Notes under the pieces: generated by a model
The model's input: the letters and a program-made list of their open reading frames with translations, nothing else
Told to the model about the DNA's origin: nothing
The model's database searches: none
Source of the DNA: an uncultured virus (IMG/VR IMGVR_UViG_3300044627_003678)
Lineage: Duplodnaviria; Heunggongvirae; Uroviricota; Caudoviricetes
Reading direction: 5' to 3' (one strand)
Length of the DNA: 64,000 bases
Virus record (IMG/VR): IMGVR_UViG_3300044627_003678
Program-made: the position numbers and the translations under genes
Shown here: positions 22,392 to 48,712 of the stretch, one piece after another
Position numbering within the stretch: the stretch's first letter is position 1
Layout of the letters: every line of letters starts with the position of its first letter

Positions 22392-23053
22392 TGGCAAAAG
22401 AAGGATATAAGCCAACGTCAGGAATGCAATCAGCAGCACGTCGTGCTATTAAATTAAAAGAGCAAGGCAAAGCAAAAGGTGCTGGCACAGCAGTAGGTTG
22501 GACTCGTGCAGGACAACTAGCAAGAGGCGAAACTCTAAGTTTATCTACGGTTAAAAGAATGTATTCTTATTTTTCACGCCATGAAGTAGATAAAAAAGGT
22601 AAAGACTGGAATAATGCAGAAAGCCCATCTAATGGAAAAATTATGTGGTTAGCATGGGGTGGGGACGCAGGGTTCTCATGGTCCAGAAAAATAGTTAACA
22701 GGGAGAAAACAATGAAAAAGAATTTAGAATTAAATGAAATCGTAGAAGAAATTAAAGATATACTTGATGATGTAGTAAATCCAATTACTAAGGTAATTGA
22801 GATTGAAGACGATATAGTAAAGTCAATTGATTCTAAGCTAGAAGATCTTACAGATGAAGAGATTTCAAAGTCTTACGAATCAGATAATGAAGATGAAGAT
22901 AAATGGGATAATATGGAAAAAGCTTGCTGGTCTGGATACAAGCAGGTCGGAATGAAAGATAAAGGCGGAAAACGAGTACCTAATTGTGTACCAATTAAAA
23001 AGTCTTTATTTGGCACAGATGGACCTCAAACATTAATACCTAAAAATAAATAA
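22391..23053 (+). CDS. phage protein with head-associated-like N-domain and CW.GY..VPNCVP motif
   Basis: TVKRMYSYFSRHEVDK...LAWGGDAG domain; CWSGYKQVGMK..VPNCVP; AAGGAG SD. Confidence 0.6.
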   Translation: MAKEGYKPTSGMQSAARRAIKLKEQGKAKGAGTAVGWTRAGQLARGETLSLSTVKRMYSYFSRHEVDKKGKDWNNAESPSNGKIMWLAWGGDAGFSWSRKIVNREKTMKKNLELNEIVEEIKDILDDVVNPITKVIEIEDDIVKSIDSKLEDLTDEEISKSYESDNEDEDKWDNMEKACWSGYKQVGMKDKGGKRVPNCVPIKKSLFGTDGPQTLIPKNK

Positions 23054-23062
23054 TAAAATCAG

Positions 23063-23106
23063 TTGACAAGGACTAAAAGATCCCTGTATAATAGTATACA
23101 GGGATT
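23063..23106 (+). promoter_or_regulatory. sigma-70-type promoter with palindrome over -10/+1 (upstream of the whiB operon)
   Basis: TTGACA-N18-TATAAT; ATCCCTGTATA-ATAG-TATACAGGGAT inverted repeat. Confidence 0.7.
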
Positions 23107-23128
23107 CGCCTTTTATATTTAAGGAAAA

Positions 23129-23359
23129 ATGTTACATTTAAATGAACGTGGTGTAGAAGTATTTATAAATAAATATAAATCAATTACCAATGATGCATAT
23201 TGGAACAATTATGATTTAATTATTTGGAAAAAAAATAATAATGCATTTTTTAATATAAAAGGAATATTTAATAAAGCTTGGGGAATGGCAGATAGAGTAT
23301 CTGTAGATAATAAAGGAATGTGGGTTCTACCTAAACAATATGTCAAATATTTTAAATAA
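23129..23359 (+). CDS. hypothetical protein
   Basis: AAGGA SD, ORF. Confidence 0.65.
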   Translation: MLHLNERGVEVFINKYKSITNDAYWNNYDLIIWKKNNNAFFNIKGIFNKAWGMADRVSVDNKGMWVLPKQYVKYFK

Positions 23360-23651
23360 TTTAGGGGTAGACAAAGACGATTTAGACTGGTGGCACCTTG
23401 CAGTTTGTAGAGGCATGGACACTAACTTATTTTATGATAAATATGAAAATGATCCTAAAATTGCAAAAAATGTTGACGAAGCATGTCTAGCTTGCCCAGT
23501 TATAGCAATGTGTTATAAATCTGGATCTGATGGCGATGAGTATGGCGTATGGGGCGGAGTTTATTTAAACTCTGGATCGATTGATAAAACTAGAAATTTA
23601 CATAAGACAACTGATACATGGAAAAGATTGAAAAAGAAAAATGTTTATTGA
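23340..23651 (+). CDS. whiB: WhiB-family Fe-S transcription factor
   Basis: W..LAVC...C..C.V...C...EYGVWGG. Confidence 0.93.
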   Translation: MSNILNNLGVDKDDLDWWHLAVCRGMDTNLFYDKYENDPKIAKNVDEACLACPVIAMCYKSGSDGDEYGVWGGVYLNSGSIDKTRNLHKTTDTWKRLKKKNVY

Positions 23652-32541: not shown

Positions 32542-33078
32542 ATGAAAACCGTAGGCGATAAATTAAGTAATTTTAATGTAATGGGAGTAAAACCTGGAGC
32601 CCTTGCTCCCGATGATTCTTCATTTGAAGTAATTAATCAAGACTCATTTCCTGGAAAATGGAAAATTATTGCATTTTACCCAAAAGATTTTACATTTGTT
32701 TGTCCAACAGAAATTGTTGCGTATGATAAATTAGTTAATGATTTTAATGATAGAGATACAGTTTTAATGACTGGATCCACAGACAATGAATTTTGTAAAC
32801 TTGCATGGCGTAATGCACATGATGATCTTAAAAAAACTAATTCTTGGTCTTTTGCTGATACTAATCGTGAATTATCTGGTGATCTTGGAATTATTACTCC
32901 ACAGGGTGTTGCTCTTCGTGCCACATTTATTGTAGACCCAGAAAATACAATACAACACGTTACAGTAAATAATCTTGATGTAGGACGAAATCCAGAAGAG
33001 GCTTTGCGTGTTTTAGATGCTCTTCAAACAGGAGAACTTTGTGCATGTAATCGTCCACTAGGTGGAGAAACACTATAA
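32542..33078 (+). CDS. ahpC: peroxiredoxin AhpC
   Basis: FYPKDFTFVCPTE, RATFIVDP, GRN, GELCAC. Confidence 0.95.
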   Translation: MKTVGDKLSNFNVMGVKPGALAPDDSSFEVINQDSFPGKWKIIAFYPKDFTFVCPTEIVAYDKLVNDFNDRDTVLMTGSTDNEFCKLAWRNAHDDLKKTNSWSFADTNRELSGDLGIITPQGVALRATFIVDPENTIQHVTVNNLDVGRNPEEALRVLDALQTGELCACNRPLGGETL

Positions 33079-33590
33079 TGTCTTGGGTTGATAGCTTAAA
33101 AGATACGATTCCAGATTATGCCAAAGACACCAAATTAAATTTAGATGCAGTAATTAATAGATCAACTATTGATGTAGAACAGGCATCTTATTTAGCTTTG
33201 GCAGCAGCATTCGCTACTGGCAATAGTAAACTTGTAGTTTATATTTCATCTAATTTAACTGATGAGATTGAAAAAAATGCAGCCTTAACTGCTGCTTCAA
33301 TTATGGCTCAAAATAATATTTGGTATCCATATCTTGAAATGGCAGATGATCAAAGTCTTAAAGGATTGCCAGCACAACTTAGAATGAATGCAATAGCATC
33401 ACATGGTGGAACAACTAAGGGTAAGTTTGAGGCCTACTCTTTAGTGGCGTCTATTATAGGTAAATGTCATTTTTGTGTAAAGGCTCATTATGAGACATTA
33501 AAGCAAGAAGGATACACAGTAGAACAACTAAGAGATATTGGAAGAATTGCAGCAGTAATAAATTCAGTGTCTAAAGTATTGTCGGCATAA
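33078..33590 (+). CDS. ahpD: alkyl hydroperoxidase AhpD
   Basis: IPDYAKD.KLNL, MAQNN.WY, LRMN, GKCHFCVKAH. Confidence 0.93.
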   Translation: MSWVDSLKDTIPDYAKDTKLNLDAVINRSTIDVEQASYLALAAAFATGNSKLVVYISSNLTDEIEKNAALTAASIMAQNNIWYPYLEMADDQSLKGLPAQLRMNAIASHGGTTKGKFEAYSLVASIIGKCHFCVKAHYETLKQEGYTVEQLRDIGRIAAVINSVSKVLSA

Positions 33591-37600: not shown

Positions 37601-37744
37601 TTACTTAGTTAGTTTAACTTCTGCAGTAAACTTTACGCCGTTCTTCTCTGCCTCTGACAGAGCTTGCTTAGCAGCACCTGAGAAGCGACCACGCTTGCCC
37701 ACTGTAATGCCCTTGGTCTTTAGATATTCACGCTTTGTTGTCAT
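37601..37744 (-). CDS. Lsr2 DNA-binding-domain-like protein (47 aa, not in ORF track)
   Basis: REYLKTKGITVGKRGRFS resembles the Lsr2 C-terminal RE.AR..G..V..RGR AT-hook. Confidence 0.6.
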   Translation of the reverse strand: MTTKREYLKTKGITVGKRGRFSGAAKQALSEAEKNGVKFTAEVKLTK

Positions 37745-38875: not shown

Positions 38876-39115
38876 CTAACATTCTATGTAGTATTCCTCT
38901 CCAGGTTCTACCTGCCAGTATTCATTAAATTGTTTCTTGACGGATTCATCAGAACACATATTTGCCATTTCATAGTCAGCAATAAACATACCTTCATCTA
39001 TATGACCAGTTATCCAAGAATCAAATAACTGTTCTTGAATATCTTGTAATACAGCGTCTGATATATGCTTAGGCATATCATCAAACATACTAGGTTTATC
39101 ATTTTGATATCCCAT
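38876..39115 (-). CDS. acidic hypothetical protein
   Basis: CGAAAGGA RBS, PafBC-type promoter upstream. Confidence 0.7.
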   Translation of the reverse strand: MGYQNDKPSMFDDMPKHISDAVLQDIQEQLFDSWITGHIDEGMFIADYEMANMCSDESVKKQFNEYWQVEPGEEYYIEC

Positions 39116-39269
39116 ATATTCCTTTCGCTAGGACCTTAATTATATAACAGACCACTGACATTGTATATAGAATATAGGTGTGTTTCACACCACATGTCCA
39201 AGCTTTGAGATTTCAGGGAAATATATTTGACTTCCGTAAACAACATATGCTACCCTCACCCGTGAGCGC

Positions 39270-39404
39270 AAAAGAGAAGCCCCCGTGTATGGGATCACGG
39301 GGACTAAGATAAATGGCTGCTAGGACCTCAACGAAAGGAAAAACCTGCCTTACTTAGCATCTAGAGGAGATGCACCATTTATATAAATAGGCACAAGGCC
39401 TATT
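39270..39404 (-). ncRNA. candidate trans-acting antisense sRNA (~130 nt) complementary to the early-gene RBS
   Basis: TGA-TATAAT promoter at 39408-39416, multi-stem fold, terminator 39270-39304, loop UUUUUCCUUUCGUUGAGGU. Confidence 0.7.
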
Positions 39405-39418
39405 CAAATTATATCACA

Positions 39419-39823
39419 CTAAACGAGTAATCTTTCCAGCGCATACTTCTCACAGAACGCCGATAGGTCCATGGTAAAGATTGCTTCATTCTTCATACCA
39501 CGCACCTTATTGTCAAGGTTGCGGTGATCGTCCCAATCATGCAATGAGAATGTTTGTTGCTGCCAATTAATAACAGCAATCTTATGCTCGTTATCTCCAA
39601 TTGAATTTACTTGAAGACCCCAGCCTGTTTCCATATTCCATTGATCTCCAATTAATTGACTGATCGCAATCCGTGTAGCATATGATTCATCTGTCCAACG
39701 GGGACGGGCAGCAATGACAGCATCCGCCAATTTACCCAACATGTTATATCCAGCCCAGTGTCCGTATAGACATATGGTGTCGCCTGCTCCGTCTACGAAT
39801 ACGTAGTTTGCTCTATCTCCCAT
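39419..39823 (-). CDS. hypothetical phage protein
   Basis: MGDRAN...LYGHWAG...PRW.D.SYA.RI; AAGGCGG RBS. Confidence 0.75.
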   Translation of the reverse strand: MGDRANYVFVDGAGDTICLYGHWAGYNMLGKLADAVIAARPRWTDESYATRIAISQLIGDQWNMETGWGLQVNSIGDNEHKIAVINWQQQTFSLHDWDDHRNLDNKVRGMKNEAIFTMDLSAFCEKYALERLLV

Positions 39824-39824
39824 T

Positions 39825-40049
39825 TTAAACCGCCTTTTCTAGTTGAGGGACTTTTTCTGTTTTATTTAATTCTACTATTTCTAGTGTTACTTTGTCAAGA
39901 GCCTGTTTATTCTTGTTTAAATGGTGGCTACAGAAGCTGAGCTCATTTGATGTAAGCCCTCCCACTGTATCTACATCTGACTTATTAACAAATCTGATTA
40001 TCCATTTAGCCTGAGCTGGACAAGAATCGCATTTAATCCATTCGCTCAT
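39825..40049 (-). CDS. zinc-binding protein
   Basis: CDSC...FCSHH. Confidence 0.65.
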   Translation of the reverse strand: MSEWIKCDSCPAQAKWIIRFVNKSDVDTVGGLTSNELSFCSHHLNKNKQALDKVTLEIVELNKTEKVPQLEKAV

Positions 40050-40184
40050 AGTTTATTACTTTCGATCATGTCTGATAGTCTATCTAATAACCATGAATCA
40101 ATGTCAGCGATATCAATCTCCCGTAACTTCTCAATCATTTCTTCACGGGCAAACTTATAGCCTTCTTGGAATCCATCTTTATAA

Positions 40185-40424
40185 TCAGACATTTAACATC
40201 CTATCATATCTATATGCCAATTCGTTATCAGCATATTTACTTTCGACTAAAACCTTAAGTTGGTGCTTAGATATTAATCTAGTTACCTTCTCAATGTTAC
40301 CAGTTCCTATTTCGAAAGTCAATGTTTCTTTGTTATATGAATCAGGATCTAATCCTCCAACCTCAGCGTCCCATATAGAAAAATGGAACGCCCTGGATGA
40401 ATCTGCTTTTAATTTATAAAACAT
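40185..40424 (-). CDS. hypothetical protein
   Basis: coupled ORF (start MFYKL). Confidence 0.55.
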   Translation of the reverse strand: MFYKLKADSSRAFHFSIWDAEVGGLDPDSYNKETLTFEIGTGNIEKVTRLISKHQLKVLVESKYADNELAYRYDRMLNV

Positions 40425-40894
40425 TAGTCCCAATCCACATCTGTGTCTTGTAAAGACCAATCATTAATATCTACATTTGAATTATAAGATGTTAATGAAA
40501 GATCATCTGCTAACAGATAATGTGCGTCAAAGTCTTCAACCTCGTCAAGAGGAATATCGACTATGGCTTCAAACTGAATTGTACCAGTTACCCTAACTTG
40601 CTTGGTTGGATTAATTCCAAAGTATTCGCAGAGTTCACGAATAACTTCTTCTTTACTATAGTTAGGATTTGTCCATTCAACTACCTTGTCATTAAGACCG
40701 TCAACCAAACTTCTTAGTTTGATATACTCAGACTTTGCATTACGTGCTTGGTCCAGGGCCCATTCAATGTCTACAACTTTCTCGGTTGAGTAAGTAGTTT
40801 CATCATTGAAAATCTTCTTGTATGTAACAAGTTGATTAGGGTTATAGCGCTCTGCCTCTGATAAAGGTAGATTAGTTTCTGTCATTCCATTCAT
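40424..40894 (-). CDS. hypothetical protein
   Basis: likely start at 40894 after the ACGAAAGGA RBS; the frame is open upstream to 41074. Confidence 0.65.
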   Translation of the reverse strand: MNGMTETNLPLSEAERYNPNQLVTYKKIFNDETTYSTEKVVDIEWALDQARNAKSEYIKLRSLVDGLNDKVVEWTNPNYSKEEVIRELCEYFGINPTKQVRVTGTIQFEAIVDIPLDEVEDFDAHYLLADDLSLTSYNSNVDINDWSLQDTDVDWD

Positions 40895-41070
40895 TTCATT
40901 TCCTTTCGTTGTTGTTGGGAGTATTGTAGCACCTTCCACTGACAATAGTACATATGGGCTATTATTAAGTGGGGTGAGAAGTAGCTTCTCCTCAGTTCCC
41001 TCTAAATGAGTAACCTCAATTAAACAGTCAGTATCTGTATTTAAATAACTATACTTATTCCATTTATTAT

Positions 41071-41805
41071 TCATACTTTAACCTTATGAACACTGCATTC
41101 TGCCATGGCCTGTTCATCTTGCCAAGACCCTTGATTACATTCTGAACAGAACTCTCCGCATCCCTCTTCGCAGTATTCTATTGTGTCATAAGATTGGCAG
41201 GCATAGCACATATTGGTATATTCTAGGTTTTCTTTAACTTCACCACGAACAATCTCATATTCCCCACCCCAACCTGTCTCTTCCTCAAACTCTAATGTGA
41301 GAAGAGAATTAGGAACAAGATTACTTAGTTTAGTTAAGATAGTTACAGCAGGTGACCAAGCAGTGTTATATTTATATACTAGCCAGTTATCATCACCATT
41401 TGATTCATGTTCAAGTAATTCAGTATCAGGATACTCGTCACCGTCTGATACGGCTACATCCCATTTAGTTCCCCAGTTAGTTGTATTCCATGAATACCAA
41501 TCTTTCTGAGTCATAGCATGCGCTACCTCTTTAGCAAACCAATCAGGTGCACTCGTGTCTGTTCCTAGTCGTGTAGGCTGTTGAACATATTCTTGCATTG
41601 TAATACCGTCTTGTAGTGGAGAATGTATATTCCAAAATGCAAAGACAGGATTAGAGTAAGTTGATTCTGTTATTTCCATTTTCATAGTTTCAGAATTCCA
41701 ACTATCATGCCATACCATAAATGGCTCGTTAAGTTTATCTTTGATAAAATCTACCTCAGACTTTGGTCCTTGGATTGTTAATGTGTTATACACCCAGTTA
41801 GGCAT
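41071..41805 (-). CDS. DUF1281/YubB ferredoxin-like domain protein
   Basis: MPNWVYNTL, DWYSWNTTNWGTKWD, YNTAWSP. Confidence 0.8.
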   Translation of the reverse strand: MPNWVYNTLTIQGPKSEVDFIKDKLNEPFMVWHDSWNSETMKMEITESTYSNPVFAFWNIHSPLQDGITMQEYVQQPTRLGTDTSAPDWFAKEVAHAMTQKDWYSWNTTNWGTKWDVAVSDGDEYPDTELLEHESNGDDNWLVYKYNTAWSPAVTILTKLSNLVPNSLLTLEFEEETGWGGEYEIVRGEVKENLEYTNMCYACQSYDTIEYCEEGCGEFCSECNQGSWQDEQAMAECSVHKVKV

Positions 41806-41924
41806 ATTATTCCTTTCGTTGAATGTGGTAATTGTAGCAGAGTCAACTGACATTATCAAGGATTTCAGGGCTTTTTATATACATGCCGTAAGAAAGAAAA
41901 ATGGCCTTTACGTCTGGGGGCTTG

Positions 41925-41998
41925 CGATCCATAACGGACTTGAACCGTCGACCTCTACCGTGACAGGGTAGCGCTCTAACCAACTGAGCTAATGGACC
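41925..41998 (-). tRNA. tRNA-Asp(GTC)
   Basis: GGTCCAT/ATGGATC acceptor, CTACC-CTGTCAC-GGTAG anticodon arm, GTTCAAG. Confidence 0.95.
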
Positions 41999-42004
41999 TA
42001 GATG

Positions 42005-42024
42005 TGGGGCCCTTTCGGGCCCCA
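42005..42024 (-). other. GC-rich GNRA hairpin between the DUF932 gene and tRNA-Asp
   Basis: TGGGGCCC-GAAA-GGGCCCCA, no U tract. Confidence 0.7.
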
Positions 42025-42029
42025 GTTGA

Positions 42030-43037
42030 TTAGGCTAACGCCTTGACCGCTTTGAGAATTTTATTCTTCTCTGCGGTAATGATTGGGTCAAATCCACTTG
42101 CACCAGCATTTAGCGATTCGGTGTTACCAGTACGGGCGGTACGGTAATAATCTAAACGCTCAGTCAATGCATTAAACGCACCCCAAGCAGTGCCTTTAAT
42201 TGTGTTATTAGTTGGTGAGTTATGATAAAGGTCATCAATTAAAACAACCTTATTCTCCCACTTCTTTAATGCGCCTTTAACATCTGCTTCAGGCTTTGGG
42301 TATAGATTGCGAATCAAATCCGAGAATTGCTTATCGGTAATTGATTGCTTGAATAATTCGTCCGCTTCCTTTTGGAATGCATCTGCGTATGCAAATGTTA
42401 ATCCCAATGCTTGACGGGCTTGCACAATCCTACCTTCGGCAGTTTGTGTATGACGAATCTTGAATGATTGCTTAGCGCCCTTCATTGCAAGATTAAGAGT
42501 GTTTTGGCATACAACACGAACGGGTGTAATTGCTGCTTGAACCGCAACTGAACCATCGTGAGATGTCCATACAATTAAATATAACTTAGTTTTATCGTTA
42601 ATACCTTGTGGGTCTAATACGATCTCTCTAGGTATATCTAATGAGCCAAATACAACTTTGCCCTTTTTAATTGAGCCAGCAGATTCCCATTTAGCAGAAT
42701 CGTTATCTAATACATTATCAGCAAATGCGAATAACTCTTCATTCTGAACAGTTTTGTATCGCTTGCCAACTACTGATAAAACATCAGTGCCTTGGTCAAA
42801 TGGATTATCACGAATGACAAAGAAATTGTCTGATGTATTTCTCCATGTGTTTGGGATATGATCTGCAACATCTGACAAGCGGACATTCCAGTTATTCAAC
42901 TTTGCTTCTTCAAGCATTGTTGCGGTAGTTACATTTTCATCTTGAGCGAAAATGCGATTTGCAAGATTATGCCAAGCAGGTGCACCACGCAATGCAAATG
43001 CTACTTGACCATCTTGCTCTTCGAGATTATGAGCCAT
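42030..43037 (-). CDS. DUF932 family phage/plasmid protein
   Basis: MAHNLE, PAWH.L, Y..VQN.E.F, SHDGS, TPVRVVCQNTL, IRHT, GTAWGAFNALTE..D. Confidence 0.9.
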   Translation of the reverse strand: MAHNLEEQDGQVAFALRGAPAWHNLANRIFAQDENVTTATMLEEAKLNNWNVRLSDVADHIPNTWRNTSDNFFVIRDNPFDQGTDVLSVVGKRYKTVQNEELFAFADNVLDNDSAKWESAGSIKKGKVVFGSLDIPREIVLDPQGINDKTKLYLIVWTSHDGSVAVQAAITPVRVVCQNTLNLAMKGAKQSFKIRHTQTAEGRIVQARQALGLTFAYADAFQKEADELFKQSITDKQFSDLIRNLYPKPEADVKGALKKWENKVVLIDDLYHNSPTNNTIKGTAWGAFNALTERLDYYRTARTGNTESLNAGASGFDPIITAEKNKILKAVKALA

Positions 43038-43209
43038 TTTATCCTTTCGTTTGGTTGAATGCTTATTCTAACATACACGACTGACATTGTCTATCTTATT
43101 TGACATGAATTTGCGGGGGTTTTCCACAGGGTGCCGTAAGGCTGTGGATAAGTCCCCAGCTATTGAGGGCAGGGGAAATGGGCCAGGGGACTAGGCTGGC
43201 CCAAGTTTA

Positions 43210-43422
43210 TTAGATTAAGTTATGAATCTCTTCTGGAAAGAATGCTGCGAATACTTTTTTGTTTTCTTGTGTATCAACAACATATGCTTTAACATTGCCT
43301 TGAAATTTTTTTAAATTACGTTTAACTAACTTAGTTAATGCATCACGATTATAACTATTTGCAGACCATAACGTTAGATCATGAGCTTTATTAGCATCAT
43401 AGATTTCTACACGATACCGCAT
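43210..43422 (-). CDS. hypothetical protein
   Basis: ACAAAGGA RBS. Confidence 0.65.
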   Translation of the reverse strand: MRYRVEIYDANKAHDLTLWSANSYNRDALTKLVKRNLKKFQGNVKAYVVDTQENKKVFAAFFPEEIHNLI

Positions 43423-43460
43423 TGTGTTCCTTTGTTAGTAGGGATAGAAATTTTAACATA

Positions 43461-43485
43461 GGGGGCTAGATTTTGTCTAGCCCCC
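43461..43485 (-). terminator. hairpin / likely terminator
   Basis: GGGGGCTAGA-TTTTG-TCTAGCCCCC after the 43492 gene. Confidence 0.65.
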
Positions 43486-43491
43486 AGTTTA

Positions 43492-43914
43492 TTACAAGTA
43501 TCTTGCGATAGCGTTGTAGGTGCTTGTGCTTACTGTATCCTCATCGGTCATTTTGAGAATACGGATAGCGTTTTCCATTTCCTCTTTCATCTCATTGTAA
43601 GAGTGGCGGTGGATTTCCTCGTAGTTCTTTTCAGGTTCAGCAGGGAAGTCTTTGCTATCGCAAATTAAATCAAAATCTACATTTAGAGTTTTGTTCCAAG
43701 CACGATAGTTGGTGCGTAGGTTTTCTGCTTTAGCAATTTTGCTAACTGCCCATGCCCCAATTTCTTTTTGCCATTTTTCCTGAGCCTTACGATACTTTGC
43801 TTCGTTTTCGTCTTGCTTCTTAAAGTCAGCCTCTAATTTGGCTAACCTAGTTTCTAAGGCTTTAATAACCTTAGTTGTAGCGATTTTTACGCTGATGGGT
43901 TTGCTTCTTGCCAT
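43492..43914 (-). CDS. coiled-coil hypothetical protein
   Basis: ACGAAAGG RBS. Confidence 0.75.
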   Translation of the reverse strand: MARSKPISVKIATTKVIKALETRLAKLEADFKKQDENEAKYRKAQEKWQKEIGAWAVSKIAKAENLRTNYRAWNKTLNVDFDLICDSKDFPAEPEKNYEEIHRHSYNEMKEEMENAIRILKMTDEDTVSTSTYNAIARYL

Positions 43915-43946
43915 TTGTATTGCCTTTCGTTAGGTGGGTTGGTTTG

Positions 43947-44087
43947 TTATGCTTTAACGCTTGTCCAGCGGTCTGTTCCATTTACATCAAGCAGAATACG
44001 ATTAACTCCGCTTGGGTGGTTATCTATTGCTTTGATAACTCCAGTAATGCCACTTTGGGTGGTTGTGTAGGTTGTTCCGATTTCCAT
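43947..44087 (-). CDS. 46-aa SH3-like small protein (not in ORF track)
   Basis: MEIGTTYTTTQSGITGVIKAI...RILLDVNGTDRWTSVKA; has its own promoter and RBS. Confidence 0.7.
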   Translation of the reverse strand: MEIGTTYTTTQSGITGVIKAIDNHPSGVNRILLDVNGTDRWTSVKA

Positions 44088-44133
44088 TTGTTTCCTTTCG
44101 TTGAGGTTGTATTATAGCACCAGCCACCGACAA

Positions 44134-44403
44134 TTAGTAGTCGGTTTCAGGTAGCCACGCTTGTAGGTGATGAGCCTCTATAATCGCATAGGCAGGGGCT
44201 TCAGGTTTGCCTTTCCAATATACGCCTTCAGGCAGTTTGATTAACTGATTAAGTTCATCAGCATAATAAGCATCAATAGCATCAATACATGGTGCTACCA
44301 TAGATGATGGAACGGGTGGATAATGATTACTTTGTAAGTGGATTAGTATTGCTTGGTCTAAGTCAAAACTCTCCGCTAAGTCCGTTGCTGTGTTATATCC
44401 CAT
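44134..44403 (-). CDS. hypothetical phage protein
   Basis: HLQSNHYPPVP...IIEAHHL.AW; promoter and RBS upstream. Confidence 0.75.
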   Translation of the reverse strand: MGYNTATDLAESFDLDQAILIHLQSNHYPPVPSSMVAPCIDAIDAYYADELNQLIKLPEGVYWKGKPEAPAYAIIEAHHLQAWLPETDY

Positions 44404-44669
44404 TTGTTTCCTTTCGTTAGATTGGAATTATAGCAGACTTAACTGACATTTTTTAAGACACGCCCATATTTTTCAGGGTGATTTATACCACACCCTTAAC
44501 GACACGCCCGACCCCGCAGCTATGTGGGCGCCTTTTATCCGCTAAGCCCGTCTTGATCTGTATCAGGTTTAGAATATAGCAAAACAAAAAGAAAAATAAT
44601 AAATGGAGCAATTATTGCAATTGATAAAATTGCTCCAATTATTTCACCTAACAAAGAATCCATGGGCCC

Positions 44670-45419
44670 TTATTTCTTAGTAGCAGAAAATCTTATATCT
44701 GCTTTACCATAAACACATAAGCCGCATGACACGCATGCGCTGCCGCTAGTAGAAATTAGCGGAATGCTTTTATTATTTTCAGGGCATTTAGCGCCAGGTT
44801 TACCAATTAATTCTTTCATAGTACTTTCTGTAACGCCGAAAGTTTTACCTAAGTATGCTAATCTAATTTTATTACCAGTCTTACGTAGATCATGAGCAAT
44901 ATCTTTATTCTCATCATCCGTTGAATAATAAAGAGATAAGTTTTCAATACCGTCTAGGATGAGCGCTGCAGACTTAACTCGTGTATACACCCAAAATTGA
45001 ATATCGGTATTAGTTAAAATAACGTATTGCCATGCACGTGCATAAGTATCATTAAAGAAATCGCCATCCCAGTGGATACGGAATAATAACTTAGCATTTT
45101 TCTTTTCACAATCTTTTCTAAAATCATTAATCATATTTTCTAATAAATCCACCATAGTAGGCTCGTCGGCGTCCTTAAGTAAATTCCAATTGTGAATGAG
45201 CACGTCTCTAACGCCCTTATATACTTTTTCTAACTTACCCGCATAACATACGCTTTCGCATATGCTAGTGGCGCCAGGGCATGAGAATGCTTTTCCCGCA
45301 GGCAGGCCGAAAGTATTAGCAATGGCAGAAGTCTTGCCATTTTTAGATACAAGGTTAGTAACCTTGCGATCATTAGATCTTTTTAACATGGGAGCAATTA
45401 TAGCAGCGGGAACCGACAT
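44670..45419 (-). CDS. Gp88-like Cys-rich (radical-SAM-related) protein
   Basis: FGLPAG...CPGAT..C...CYA, FRIHWDGDF, FWVYTR, C..C..C. Confidence 0.75.
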   Translation of the reverse strand: MSVPAAIIAPMLKRSNDRKVTNLVSKNGKTSAIANTFGLPAGKAFSCPGATSICESVCYAGKLEKVYKGVRDVLIHNWNLLKDADEPTMVDLLENMINDFRKDCEKKNAKLLFRIHWDGDFFNDTYARAWQYVILTNTDIQFWVYTRVKSAALILDGIENLSLYYSTDDENKDIAHDLRKTGNKIRLAYLGKTFGVTESTMKELIGKPGAKCPENNKSIPLISTSGSACVSCGLCVYGKADIRFSATKK

Positions 45420-45805
45420 TACAAATCCCCCATTTCTGCATCGGCCATTCTTGACATAGCCCAATCTTGAGCTAAATCCCGATCATAGACAACGCTACAA
45501 TCTAAATCAAAATCAAATTCGTCCATTAGTTTACCTTTCGTTGGGTGAATTGATATTATACCTAACACGGCTGACATTTATTTGAAAACACCCAGTTTTT
45601 CAGGGTGTTTTTAGTCACACTCTTAACGACACGCCCGACCCCGCAGCCCTGGGGGCGCCGACACGCCCGACTGCGTTGTAAGCTGCGACACGCCCGAGAT
45701 TATATTAAATCAGATTTTTTATATTTAATTTTGCGTGTGTATTTTTTTTTATTGCGAATAGGTTGCGCCGCATTACTACGGCGCAACTCTTGTATTCGTT
45801 TTACT

Positions 45806-45997
45806 TTATCTAGAATTAAATTGGGGAACATGATAACCGCTTGCTTCATAAAATTTGTTTGCGTCAAATTTAGGATTATCTTTAGCAAACATTAAAGCAA
45901 AATCCACAATTACTTTAGAAAATAAAGCAGGGTGAGTTTTATCTGAAATATATTTCATAATTTCAGCAGTAGCAATATAATCTTTTCTAGTCATCAT
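45806..45997 (-). CDS. hypothetical phage protein
   Basis: MTRKDY..TA...FAKDNPKFD...F. Confidence 0.7.
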   Translation of the reverse strand: MMTRKDYIATAEIMKYISDKTHPALFSKVIVDFALMFAKDNPKFDANKFYEASGYHVPQFNSR

Positions 45998-45998
45998 A

Positions 45999-46198
45999 TT
46001 ATTTGCCCCCAATAAATCCAGCACGATTAAAGTTTTTAGTATACATTTTACCATTAGGTAAAGATAAATTATATGTTGCTAATTCATCAGCAAAGCCGAC
46101 ATCATAACATTTCGCAAACGCTTCAAACGCTTGTAATGCGTCAGCAAATTGGTATGTGTATTCTAATTTGCCGTCATAGTAAGTATCTAGTCTATACA
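45999..46198 (-). CDS. hypothetical protein
   Basis: coupled ORF. Confidence 0.6.
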
Positions 46199-46524
46199 TT
46201 AGATACCCCACACATCTTTAACACAATCGCAACTTTCCACATCATAGTTTTTTTCATCGCCCCAAAATATGAAGCCAGCACCGCCACACTCATCGCAAGC
46301 GACCCCGATTATTTCTGCTAGATTTCCCATTTATAGTTTTCCTTTCGTTGTTGTTAATGTAATTATAGCCTAAGCCACCGACAAAGTGGGAAGGACACGC
46401 CCTAAAGCGCACCCTCATTAAATAACCCGATTTCTAAATCTAGTAATTCATCAGGGGTGGCTTCGGATAAATCTACCCAGCCAGCACCCTCATCATCTAA
46501 GCGAAATATTTCTATGTATCCCAT

Positions 46525-46716
46525 TTACTCACCTACCTTAACCGCTATATTTCGGTAAGTATATTTACCAGTATCAGATTTAACCTGAACCAAATATCCT
46601 TCAGCATTTTCATAAAAAATATCTGATTTATCTGCTGAGATAATTTCTCCACGCAGAGTTTTTGAGTTATAGATTTTACCAATTAGTAAATCTTGTATTG
46701 TGTATAAGTTAGCCAT
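46525..46716 (-). CDS. hypothetical protein
   Basis: promoter plus ACGAAAGGA RBS. Confidence 0.7.
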   Translation of the reverse strand: MANLYTIQDLLIGKIYNSKTLRGEIISADKSDIFYENAEGYLVQVKSDTGKYTYRNIAVKVGE

Positions 46717-46988
46717 TGTTAGCCACTTCCTTTCGTTTTGTTATATGCCGATATTATACTCTAACCCACCGACAATTTGCATATTACTTGTGAGTAATCC
46801 CATATTTTGAGACGCTCAACTCATGTGTTCTTAATCACATTTAGCCTGTGGACGACACGCCCGACACGCCACGACACGCCCGAAAGTTATCCACAGATTT
46901 CAGGGCTTTTTTTTAATGTGTCTTAAATCACATTTTGCCCCCACAGCTTTTGTGGGCGCTTCCGCCTTTTGTCAAGGCGACACGCCGT

Positions 46989-47186
46989 TTAGTCTATGTG
47001 ACCTTCCTCACGCATATATTCCTCATGCTCAATTAAACCAATAGAGAACGCAATCGGATCGCAACACTCTAAGATTTCGCTGGCGGTAAATGTTGATACT
47101 CCGATTTTATAAGTAGGATAAATCTCATCTAACATTTGGCAGAAGCTTTCCTTTAATTCTAAATCCTTTTCGAATTGTGATTTCAT
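46989..47186 (-). CDS. hypothetical protein
   Basis: AGGAG SD. Confidence 0.65.
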   Translation of the reverse strand: MKSQFEKDLELKESFCQMLDEIYPTYKIGVSTFTASEILECCDPIAFSIGLIEHEEYMREEGHID

Positions 47187-47950
47187 TTATCTCTCCTAAG
47201 TAATACGATAGAATAAACAAAAGCAATAGAGCCAACTAGTAGCCATGTTGGAATATCTATACCGACACCATTAGGCCATAGCCCGTTAATATATAGCGAA
47301 AAGTATTCGCTATCTATAAATAATTCTAAGTTCATTATTCGTATTCCTCCCAATCTAGTGTTAAGCCTTTTTCGATTACCTCGTCCATGCTAATCATGTC
47401 CTCATCAAATAGACTTTCCTCGTTATGTTTGTCTAACTTTTCGGCCTCATCTAAGTAGGCATAAGCGTCTGCTATGTCCGCTTGAATAGTGTCCCATTTA
47501 GTCATCATTAGTTATTCACCTGCTCTATCTTATGTATTAGGTATTCGAATTTTAGCGGAGGGTTTGCCTCGTTTAATTCATTAACTAGAGCGATAATTTC
47601 TTTAATGCTCTTAGCGGTTAGTGTGCCTTTTTGTAAAGAGCCTTGCCAAATTGAGTAGGTTAGTTTCATTAGTTATTACCTCCACTAACAATAGCACCGA
47701 CAATAGCAATTAGAGTTATCGTGCCTAACACGATAGGCAAAACAATATGAGGATAATCCTCTACCCAATCAAAAAATAACATTAGTTAGCCTCGCTCTCA
47801 TCTATGTCGAACATTTCAGCAAACACTCTGTTTGCTTGTTGTAAGGCCTCTAGTGCCTCGTTTAGTTTATCCATTTTCTGTCCTTCTTTCGTTAGGTTGT
47901 TCATTAAGGTAAGACTATCATTACTGACCGACAATATCAACACGACACGC

Positions 47951-48133
47951 TTAGAGCGTGGCGTGAGATACCTCACACTCCTCAGAGCAGCGTGGCGTTT
48001 CCGCCATGATTAAGGTCATCAGACCCACACGCTCAGACTTAGTAAGTCTAAGACGGCTAACGGTATCGGACTTGATACCGCCATGATTATATTCGAACAA
48101 AAGTTCGGTATAAATATCATTTAGTTTATTCAT
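47951..48133 (-). CDS. hypothetical protein, first gene of the minus-strand island
   Basis: GAAAGGA RBS. Confidence 0.55.
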   Translation of the reverse strand: MNKLNDIYTELLFEYNHGGIKSDTVSRLRLTKSERVGLMTLIMAETPRCSEECEVSHATL

Positions 48134-48165
48134 TTTAAGTTATCCTTTCTAAGATACTTTCGTGG

Positions 48166-48221
48166 AGAGCGGTTATTTGCTAGGCTCACCCTTTCGGGAT
48201 TATTTGCTAGGCTCACGCTCT
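48166..48221 (-). ncRNA. two-fold symmetric leader RNA
   Basis: AGAGCG-[TGAGCCTAGCAAATAA]-TCCC-GAAA-GGG-[TGAGCCTAGCAAATAA]-CCGCTCT. Confidence 0.6.
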
Positions 48222-48712
48222 AATTCTTTATTTAATTTGTATAATATAATCCTAACAGGGGGGACTGACATTTTGCCTATCACAAATCGGACATGTCGGA
48301 CATTTCAAAATAAATCTTAGAATAATCGTGTGAGATAAACCACATATGGTCGCTCTATCTGGACAAATCGGACATTTTAAAACCCTGGATCATACAAATA
48401 AAATCTATATTAACATTTTGGTAGATATGAATATTATAGTCGACTAGGATTATATATGATATAAAAAGGCGGGGGATGTAGATGTATCATCTATTGCGTA
48501 TATATCCCAGATATAGATATACATTATGGATCTCTTCAGCTACTACGGTATATCTTCAGCAATTTATGTTATATTCCAGTATATAGCATTATATGGGGTA
48601 TATGGGTTGTATTGATTAGTATGGGTATATAGGGTCTTTCATTTCCGCCGACGCACTTTTTTTCCGCAATTCACTTTTAATTTCCTTGTGAATTTAGTAT
48701 ACTGAATACCAT

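Follow-up and report, generated by a model that had tools for sequence, protein, structure and literature searches.

Twelve sites on the minus strand of a 64-kb stretch of DNA from an uncultured virus of the Caudoviricetes (IMG/VR record IMGVR_UViG_3300044627_003678; the whole stretch is referred to here as the window) form a strongly non-random, family-conserved array of putative phage promoters. By their sequence, these are hybrid promoters of the type activated by PafBC in Actinobacteria, with a TGTC(A/G)G box located 10 nucleotides (nt) upstream of a TANNNT hexamer. The host RNA polymerase probably reads them with the help of the host PafBC, although several observations, discussed below, weigh against this.

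Results

A promoter array in the window

The window was scanned on both strands for TGTCRG-N10-TANNNT, with 100 dinucleotide-preserving shuffles as the null. There are 12 matches, all on the minus strand and all located between positions 39139 and 48270 (about 9.1 kb, to be referred to as the island), compared to a mean of 0.89 in the shuffles (standard deviation 0.86, largest count 4). No match is found in the rest of the window. A first-pass annotation of this DNA had listed 11 minus-strand sites with an invariant spacing and box, and none outside the island. Every one of these sites was recovered at its position, a twelfth (45397-45418) is added here, and the spacing and the TGTC(A/G)G box hold at 12 of 12 sites.

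With box positions 5 and 6 left free (TGTC-N12-TANNNT), the window has 24 matches, compared to 11.7 expected. The 12 extra matches are scattered over both strands of the whole window, which is the chance level, and therefore all of the island sites read TGTC(A/G)G. The TGn of an extended -10 element is present at 8 of the 12 sites, and the other four lack it and yet keep the box. A generic sigma-70 scan of the region 35-54 kb shows no enrichment (90 found, compared to 84.9 in shuffles). Promoters of the consensus and extended -10 types are located outside the island, as had been annotated: TTGACA-18-TATAAT before 23129, TTGACT-17/18-TATAAT before 32542 and 34566, and several TGnTATAAT. The one at 32542 heads an AhpC gene.

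Match to the PafBC promoter class

In the published passages on this class, the in vivo PafBC consensus is the 22-nt sequence tGTCgg(N10)tA(N3)T, the 3′ part of which is the SigA -10 element (PMC8635444). The 5′ part, at positions -23 to -28, is the '-26 element', and there is no -35 element. Two arginines of PafB contact the guanines of the GTC triplet, and PafBC sits between the DNA and sigma domain 4, an arrangement termed 'sigma adaptation' and likened to that of MotA/AsiA in phage T4 (PMC8635444). PafBC is activated by single-stranded DNA (ssDNA) bound at its WYL domains (PMC11804915), and RecA-NDp is the name of the motif (PMC6789036).

The predicted promoters of the island have the same organization. 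The -26 element tGTCgg with its invariant GTC is found at 12 of 12 sites, and so is the fixed 10-nt gap to TAnnnT. The sequence logo of 770 related contexts (see below) has no -35 element, and the generic sigma-70 scan of 35-54 kb is not enriched. Both the sequence of the putative phage promoters and, to the base, their spacing are those of the published PafBC consensus. The first-pass annotation had identified them as RecA-NDp/PafBC motifs, and the consensus given in the cited passages bears this out.

Conservation in the phage family

Relatives were collected from IMG/VR with the DUF932 protein of the island (42030-43037), taking the best 80 of 161 loci (66-100% identity, 1,276,131 nt). The motif is present 1036 times on the gene strand of these loci and 4 times on the other strand, and a control with the motif reversed, not complemented, gave 9 matches. 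The enrichment that the first-pass annotation had proposed to look for is thus found in the window (12 versus 0.89) as well as in its relatives (1036 versus 4 by strand). Five relatives of 104-120 kb, three of which have terminal repeats, are rated as 100% complete. They have 14, 14, 14, 18 and 14 sites in one island that spans about 9-13.5 kb, with 0-3 sites elsewhere per genome.

The logo from 770 unique contexts reads aaa-TGTCAG-t[g/c][c/g]c...tG-c-TAtAAT. Position 5 of the box is A in 84% of the contexts, and G at -14 and T at -15 are found in 81% and 66%, respectively. No TTGACA-like signal is seen in this logo 16-18 nt upstream of the -10 element, and for this reason a placement of the box within the spacer of ordinary -35/-10 promoters is rejected for the window. 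The exact subclass TGTCAGTGG-N7-TAYAAT was also sought in the viral collection and is present in at least 192 stretches, with 92 sites in the 80 loci listed. Nearly all of these 92 sites are in DNA of about 40% G+C content (GC), often with several sites per contig; membership in the family is not implied by such a site. A megablast search of the island against the phage collection gave no match.

Start codons and transcription

Behind 11 of the 12 sites, an (A)CGAAAGGA-type Shine-Dalgarno sequence is located within 8-20 nt and is followed by an ATG, in agreement with the ribosome-binding site and gene annotated behind each listed site. The sequence ACGAAAGGA has 8 copies in the window, compared to 0.28 expected, and seven of them are on the minus strand in the island.

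Promoter 6 (Table 1) has a different layout. An ATG is positioned 7 nt past its TATAAT, in frame with a GP88-family gene, and the alignment with GP88 homologues of cultured phages begins at about residue 11-12 of the longer open reading frame (ORF), which corresponds to this ATG. The site at 45397 is therefore a putative leaderless promoter of the GP88 gene. Leaderless mRNAs with the start codon at +1 are common in Actinobacteria. The distance from TANNNT to the start codon of long ORFs is bimodal in the related loci. It is exactly 6-7 nt in 63 of 781 unique promoters and 22-36 nt in most of the others, with almost none in between, and 31 promoters have no start within 60 nt. This spacing, in place of a mapped 5′ end, is sequence evidence that TANNNT is the true -10 element, with transcription predicted to start about 7 nt after it.

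Between 6 and 19% of the sampled words of the island are present in 24 lake or freshwater metatranscriptome runs. Contigs from four metatranscriptome runs cover the island partly and at low depth, with no 5′ ends or strand and with carry-over of DNA possible, and they speak neither for nor against the promoters.

Gene content and cultured relatives of the phage

By its gene content, the phage is predicted to infect actinobacteria. The actinophage markers of the window are WhiB (23340-23651), GP88, DUF932 and DUF7455, and whiB-carrying freshwater actinophages are already known (PMC10914622). The first-pass annotation had assumed a host of the Mycobacterium or Corynebacterium type. This is disfavored by the GC of the window (24-40%), which is far from that of those genera. 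The window also encodes RecA, RuvC, a Cas4-like nuclease, terminase, class II ribonucleotide reductase, thioredoxin, AhpC/AhpD-like proteins and tail fibers. The AhpC/AhpD-like pair (32542-33590, plus strand), thioredoxin, Hsp20 and five 2OG-Fe(II) oxygenase genes look like auxiliary genes for oxidative stress.

The DUF932 and GP88 proteins were compared by tblastn with 50,697 phage records, giving 619 and 392 records, respectively. Most of these are phages of Mycobacterium, Streptomyces, Microbacterium, Arthrobacter and Gordonia, with identities below 60% except for one GP88 match in the 60-80% band. Among cultured phages, those closest by the two proteins together infect Streptomyces and belong to the Stanwilliamsviridae (Jay2Jay, Naboo and BillNye), at about 53-54% identity. 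Their genomes are similar in size (about 120-134 kb) and likewise have an arm rich in small genes, among them homologues of DUF932, Lsr2-like and GP88 genes. A 47-residue ORF of the window (37601-37744, minus strand) resembles Lsr2-like DNA-bridging proteins in their N-terminal part (phrog_6269, E 1.3e-7), and the counterpart arm of Jay2Jay contains a full Lsr2-like gene.

All five complete relatives were searched for regulators and recombinases. They contain no WYL domain, no PafB or PafC homologue at E<=1 and no sigma-70 region 2 (Sigma70_r2), so that a recognizable phage copy of the activator is absent. They also contain no tyrosine integrase (PF00589) and no serine recombinase (PF00239), and the family therefore looks lytic. 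A Pfam search of 106 window ORFs at E<=0.001 gave no family named MotA or AsiA and no sigma-factor family.

pafBC and recA in low-GC actinobacterial genomes

Actinobacterial genomes of similarly low GC that have a genuine pafBC locus carry the same motif upstream of recA as well. The entry to the phylum was a 1.6-Mb record titled 'MAG: Actinomycetota bacterium' (locus L095, genome G007; loci of about 36-43% GC). The comparison covers 26 small or low-GC genomes, which are not a random sample: seven of the G007 family, three of 1.1 Mb, 11 that share the most words with the phage DNA, and five more small ones.

Two adjacent WYL ORFs are present in 10 of the 26 genomes, namely the seven of the G007 family (loci of 36-48% GC), G435 (38%), G420 (54%) and G419 (67%). 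Three genomes have one WYL ORF. The pair of G007 is located in the gene order prcB-prcA-pafA-DUF3866-pafB-pafC, where pafA is the Pup ligase gene, and signal peptidase, tatA and tatC genes are on the far side. One ORF of the pair carries the Pfam domains HTH_PafC and WYL. The best matches of the two ORFs are the M. smegmatis PafB chain (9fnd_X, 7p5x_AY, E about 1e-12) and PafC chain (7p5x_AX, 6e-17). In the aligned helix, SRMFERDK of M. smegmatis corresponds to RRAFERDK of G007, with both arginines kept. From their position, these arginines are probably the residues that read the GTC triplet.

The motif TGTC-N12-TANNNT is found upstream of recA in 10 of the 10 genomes with a pafBC-like pair and in none of the 16 others. 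A chance match in such a recA region has a frequency of about 3%, as estimated from the seven fixed bases. The ten genomes represent four lineages at most, and the association therefore does not correspond to ten independent events. In 8 of the 10, a LexA-type or near-LexA box lies immediately 5′ of the motif, and six of the seven recA regions of the G007 family read TGTCGTACCCCC. The recA loci of this family (L200, L201, L204-L208) have a LexA-type or near-LexA box with the PafBC-type TGTCGTACCCCC-N4-TAnnnT directly on its 3′ side. A two-promoter arrangement of this kind is known for mycobacterial recA. The recA genes of the family also have a ACGAAAGGAA ribosome site before the ATG, as do the phage genes. 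In the three 1.1-Mb genomes, read by eye, the TGTC box is two bases further from TAATAT or TAATAG.

The 11 AT-rich small genomes that share words with the phage have GGAGG-type ribosome sites in 9 of 11 recA upstream regions. None of the 11 has a WhiB homologue, and 9 of them also have no WYL gene. A phage that carries WhiB is therefore unlikely to have its host in this group. Across 21 genomes tested, no WhiB is more than 40% identical to that of the phage. A phylum-wide blastn search with 18.5 kb of phage DNA gave only matches to tRNA-Met, the thioredoxin active site and AhpC. Cellular homologues of the phage AhpC with about 76% identity are present on long contigs, and the matches listed in genome contigs are mostly proteobacterial (62-68%), plus the record 'MAG: Actinomycetota bacterium'. 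In samples of the order, family and class of the latter, the phage-like type of AhpC was found in G007 and G037 only. AhpC was dropped as a host indicator because Burkholderiales proteins are equally similar.

Candidate readers of the promoters

We think it somewhat probable that host RNA polymerase with sigmaA reads the phage promoters via the host PafBC loaded with ssDNA. The sites would be 'hybrid' promoters, with TGTC(A/G)G at -26, TAnnnT 10 nt away and no -35 element, from which the housekeeping polymerase of the host would fire only with the ssDNA-loaded PafBC heterodimer between sigma region 4 and the box. A phage that has no factor of its own would in this way couple about a dozen short units to the ssDNA alarm of the host. 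The coupled genes would be small genes of unassigned function plus DUF932, GP88 and a tRNA, and the trigger of the alarm could be infection itself, through phage DNA that is injected or replicating or through nuclease attack, or else UV and other damage to the host. The presence of PafBC in the host, its action at the phage boxes and the timing are inferred here. The block would be 'early' judging from its make-up, that is, small genes on the opposite strand that are homologous to the small-gene arm of the Streptomyces phages. The first-pass annotation had proposed a wiring either to the host PafBC or to a phage-encoded mimic. The former is partly upheld, as the identity of the motif, the actinophage gene content and the co-occurrence of pafBC with the recA motif argue for it, with the link to PafBC itself drawn from sequence. 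The set of genes in the five complete relatives, with no PafBC-like, WYL or sigma protein, argues against a recognizable mimic.

Several observations weigh against a reading by the host PafBC. The phage boxes are more uniform (TGTCRG at 12 of 12) than the recA boxes (TGTCGT, TGTCAC, TGTCGC), and the G of the extended -10 element, present in 81% of the family sites, is absent from the recA sites. With this element, the promoters might fire in the absence of any activator. At the very onset of infection, there may be little of the ssDNA that PafBC needs. A WhiB gene, located behind a consensus promoter, is conserved in 5 of 5 complete relatives. On the host side, 13 of the 26 genomes, among which the freshwater acI lineage is not knowingly included, have no WYL gene (a WhiB homologue, searched for in 10 of these 13, is absent from 9). 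The genome of G007 shows no enrichment of TGTCRG-N10-TANNNT (18 matches, compared to 15 for the reversed control). Finally, there is no promoter cluster in Jay2Jay, Naboo, BillNye or mycobacteriophage ArcherNM, with 0-2 matches each. The counts do not exceed the reversed control in the three Streptomyces phages, whereas ArcherNM has 2 matches and none in the control. The hosts of these four phages, those of the Stanwilliamsviridae being of high GC in contrast to the window phage, presumably have PafBC. The promoter set is therefore a trait of the low-GC uncultured family and not of actinophages in general.

The conserved WhiB brings up another possible reader. A phage-encoded adaptor, made first from ordinary promoters, could bridge sigma region 4 and the TGTCRG box in the manner of T4 MotA/AsiA, and the likeness to PafBC sites would then be convergence or mimicry. 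WhiB, which binds sigma region 4 in known cases, is a candidate because it is present in all five complete relatives, in an operon behind a perfect TTGACA-18-TATAAT. One of these relatives (G006) has a second WhiB (a 72-residue frame, C1:88547-88784) directly behind a TGTCAG promoter of the island. The tighter boxes of the phage would also fit a dedicated reader, which could also be another small protein, as most island proteins match no known family in Pfam/PHROG-type annotation of the window ORFs. However, we know of no WhiB protein that reads a specific hexamer, and the box, the 10-nt gap and the missing -35 element are exactly those of the host class, a match for which a reader unrelated to PafBC would have no need. 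The searches for PafB, PafC, WYL, sigma-70 region 2 and MotA/AsiA families described above also found no such factor, although a small protein that is not recognizable would escape them. Overall, an adaptor made by the phage appears unlikely.

Extended -10 promoters can work without a -35 element, and host RNA polymerase with sigmaA might simply fire from TGnTAnnnT, with the box as an operator or another signal, for example for a repressor that turns the block off at a later stage. The G and T preferences at -14 and -15 in the family, the TGn at 8 of the 12 window sites and the TGnTATAAT carried by other operons of the phage are consistent with this. On the other hand, the box is kept at the four sites that lack TGn. 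Its position is invariant to the base, as expected of a partner of the polymerase rather than of a separate operator, and the same box and distance precede recA only in the genomes that carry pafBC. We consider an activator-independent mechanism quite unlikely. It is highly improbable that the island is the damage-inducible switch of a temperate phage, with the boxes triggering prophage induction in place of a LexA- or CI-type control. A DNA-damage promoter motif would suit such a switch, but neither PF00589 nor PF00239 is present in the complete relatives, and the LexA box CGAAC-N4-GTTCG occurs in only 11 of the 80 related loci and never at a promoter, the single copy in the window being intragenic.

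If the host PafBC is the reader, a lytic family could use it both as a switch and as a target. The 12-18 strong boxes, multiplied by replication and strengthened by the extended -10 element, would fire once DNA ends or forks raise the alarm, and would draw limited PafBC away from repair and defense genes. The host response would then become the early or middle program of the phage, with the GGCGTGTCG repeats (TGTCG core) as extra landing sites. This extension is speculative, and we hold it to be rather improbable.

Other features of the island

The predicted promoters and the features around them are listed in Table 1. Located after the DUF932 gene and ahead of the next promoter, the tRNA-Asp gene is probably co-transcribed from the promoter at 43065-43086. 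Three further tRNAs (Met, Asn and Glu) are located elsewhere in the window. Several units of the island end in GC-rich hairpins.

Table 1. Predicted promoters, genes, hairpins and repeats in and around the island (window positions)
Feature	Position	Strand	Description
Promoter 1	48249..48270	-	TGTCAGTCCCCCCTGTTAGGAT; leader of about 115 nt (48135-48248) with two direct copies of GTGAGCCTAGCAAATAA; then gene 47951-48133 (60 residues)
Promoter 2	47912..47933	-	TGTCGGTCAGTAATGATAGTCT; six small genes in a run, 47874 down to 46989
Promoter 3	46753..46774	-	TGTCGGTGGGTTAGAGTATAAT; genes 46525-46716, 46402-46524
Promoter 4	46362..46383	-	TGTCGGTGGCTTAGGCTATAAT; genes 46199-46330 onward to about 45806
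Promoter 5	45555..45576	-	TGTCAGCCGTGTTAGGTATAAT; small gene with start at 45526
Promoter 6	45397..45418	-	TGTCGGTTCCCGCTGCTATAAT; GP88 gene, in-frame ATG at 45389; absent from the first-pass list
Promoter 7	44427..44448	-	TGTCAGTTAAGTCTGCTATAAT; gene 44134-44403 (89 residues)
Promoter 8	44111..44132	-	TGTCGGTGGCTGGTGCTATAAT; genes 43947-44087, 43492-43914
Promoter 9	43065..43086	-	TGTCAGTCGTGTATGTTAGAAT; DUF932 gene 42030-43037, tRNA-Asp 41924-41998
Promoter 10	41831..41852	-	TGTCAGTTGACTCTGCTACAAT; gene 41071-41805 (244 residues)
Promoter 11	40923..40944	-	TGTCAGTGGAAGGTGCTACAAT; genes 40424-40894, 40046-40192, DUF7455 39825-40049, 39419-39823
Promoter 12	39139..39160	-	TGTCAGTGGTCTGTTATATAAT; gene 38876-39115 and small genes behind it
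GP88-family gene (PF17338, phrog_1392)	44670..45389	-	Read from the putative leaderless ATG
DUF932 gene (PF06067, phrog_1221)	42030..43037	-	Query for collecting relatives
Terminator-like hairpin, 11-bp, GC-rich	43461..43485	-	After gene 43492-43914; readable from either strand
Terminator-like hairpin	39278..39305	-	After gene 39419-39823
GGCGTGTC repeats (mostly GGGCGTGTCG)	44457..46986	-	10 copies, in the gaps upstream of promoters 3, 4, 5 and 7
CCCTGAAA boxes	39211, 41863, 44471, 45598, 46898 (to 46905)	-	12-125 nt upstream of promoters 12, 10, 7, 5 and 3
Phage WhiB gene	23340..23651	+	Operon behind perfect TTGACA-18-TATAAT (23040-23130); marker of an actinobacterial host; candidate rival reader of the boxes

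Two further repeats accompany the predicted promoters. The 10 copies of GGCGTGTC are all on the gene strand, compared to 0.18 expected, and some promoters are preceded by three of them in tandem. The relatives have 353 gene-strand copies of the GGGCGTGTCG-type repeat, all but one (352) inside the island, and 98 copies on the other strand. Of 771 unique promoters, 143 are preceded by a copy within 150 nt, and the distances peak at 10-19 nt from the box. The GGGCGTGTCG repeats carry a TGTCG core, which is shared with the promoter box. The second repeat, CCCTGAAA, has 8 copies in the window, all on the minus strand, compared to 2.2 expected, and 260 copies on the gene strand of the relatives compared to 7 on the other strand. 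One of the window copies is inside the GP88 gene (44777). The boxes upstream of the five promoters often follow directly on a short inverted repeat such as GGGTG...CACCC.

A perfect LexA-type palindrome, CGAACAAAAGTTCG, is located at 48094-48107, inside the first gene of the island and 164 nt past promoter 1. It is kept in the nearest relatives only and is equalled by 23 of 100 shuffles.

Discussion

The putative phage promoters resemble the PafBC-dependent RecA-NDp promoters of Mycobacterium and other Actinobacteria, as described in the cited passages, in the TGTC(A/G)G box, the 10-nt gap and the missing -35 element (PMC8635444, PMC11804915). They differ from these host promoters, however, in forming a phage-borne array of 12 sites (14-18 in relatives), in preceding small genes instead of repair genes, in having an extended -10 element in 81% of the sites, and in a less variable box, and their reading by PafBC is a prediction. 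They are also similar to the middle promoters of T4, where, in the comparison drawn in PMC8635444, a box near -30 replaces the -35 element and a factor bridges to sigma region 4. In comparison, T4 brings its own MotA and AsiA, while no such factor is recognizable here, where the box belongs to a host activator.

As in phage and prophage genes under SOS (LexA) control, transcription of the phage would be tied to the state of DNA damage in the host. However, LexA is a repressor that is removed through RecA, whereas PafBC is an activator that binds ssDNA, and the phage family has no LexA boxes at the promoters and no integrases. A further parallel is provided by the WYL regulators of anti-phage systems, CapW and BrxR, since WYL proteins, in the published passages on them, sense ssDNA or DNA damage that accompanies phage attack. 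CapW and BrxR control defense genes of the host; here it would be the phage that profits from the signal.

We found no description of phage promoters of the PafBC class in the titles, abstracts and passages covered, which do not include a paper on PafBC and mycobacteriophage resistance cited in PMC12848934. A defined in vitro system with M. smegmatis RNA polymerase-sigmaA, PafBC and ssDNA is described in the published passages (PMC11804915), and the idea is therefore directly testable.

PafBC promoters have so far been known only as a DNA-damage regulon of the host. If the reading by the host PafBC is correct, this would be the first phage to borrow sigma adaptation, and it would do so for a whole block of genes in a widespread family of lake phages. 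It would be an activator-based counterpart to the phages coupled to SOS and to the self-encoded appropriation of sigma by T4. The promoter set would provide a sequence signature for phages of PafBC-bearing actinobacteria, and for their early genes, in metagenomes. Moreover, it would mean that the ssDNA alarm of the host can be exploited by an invader.

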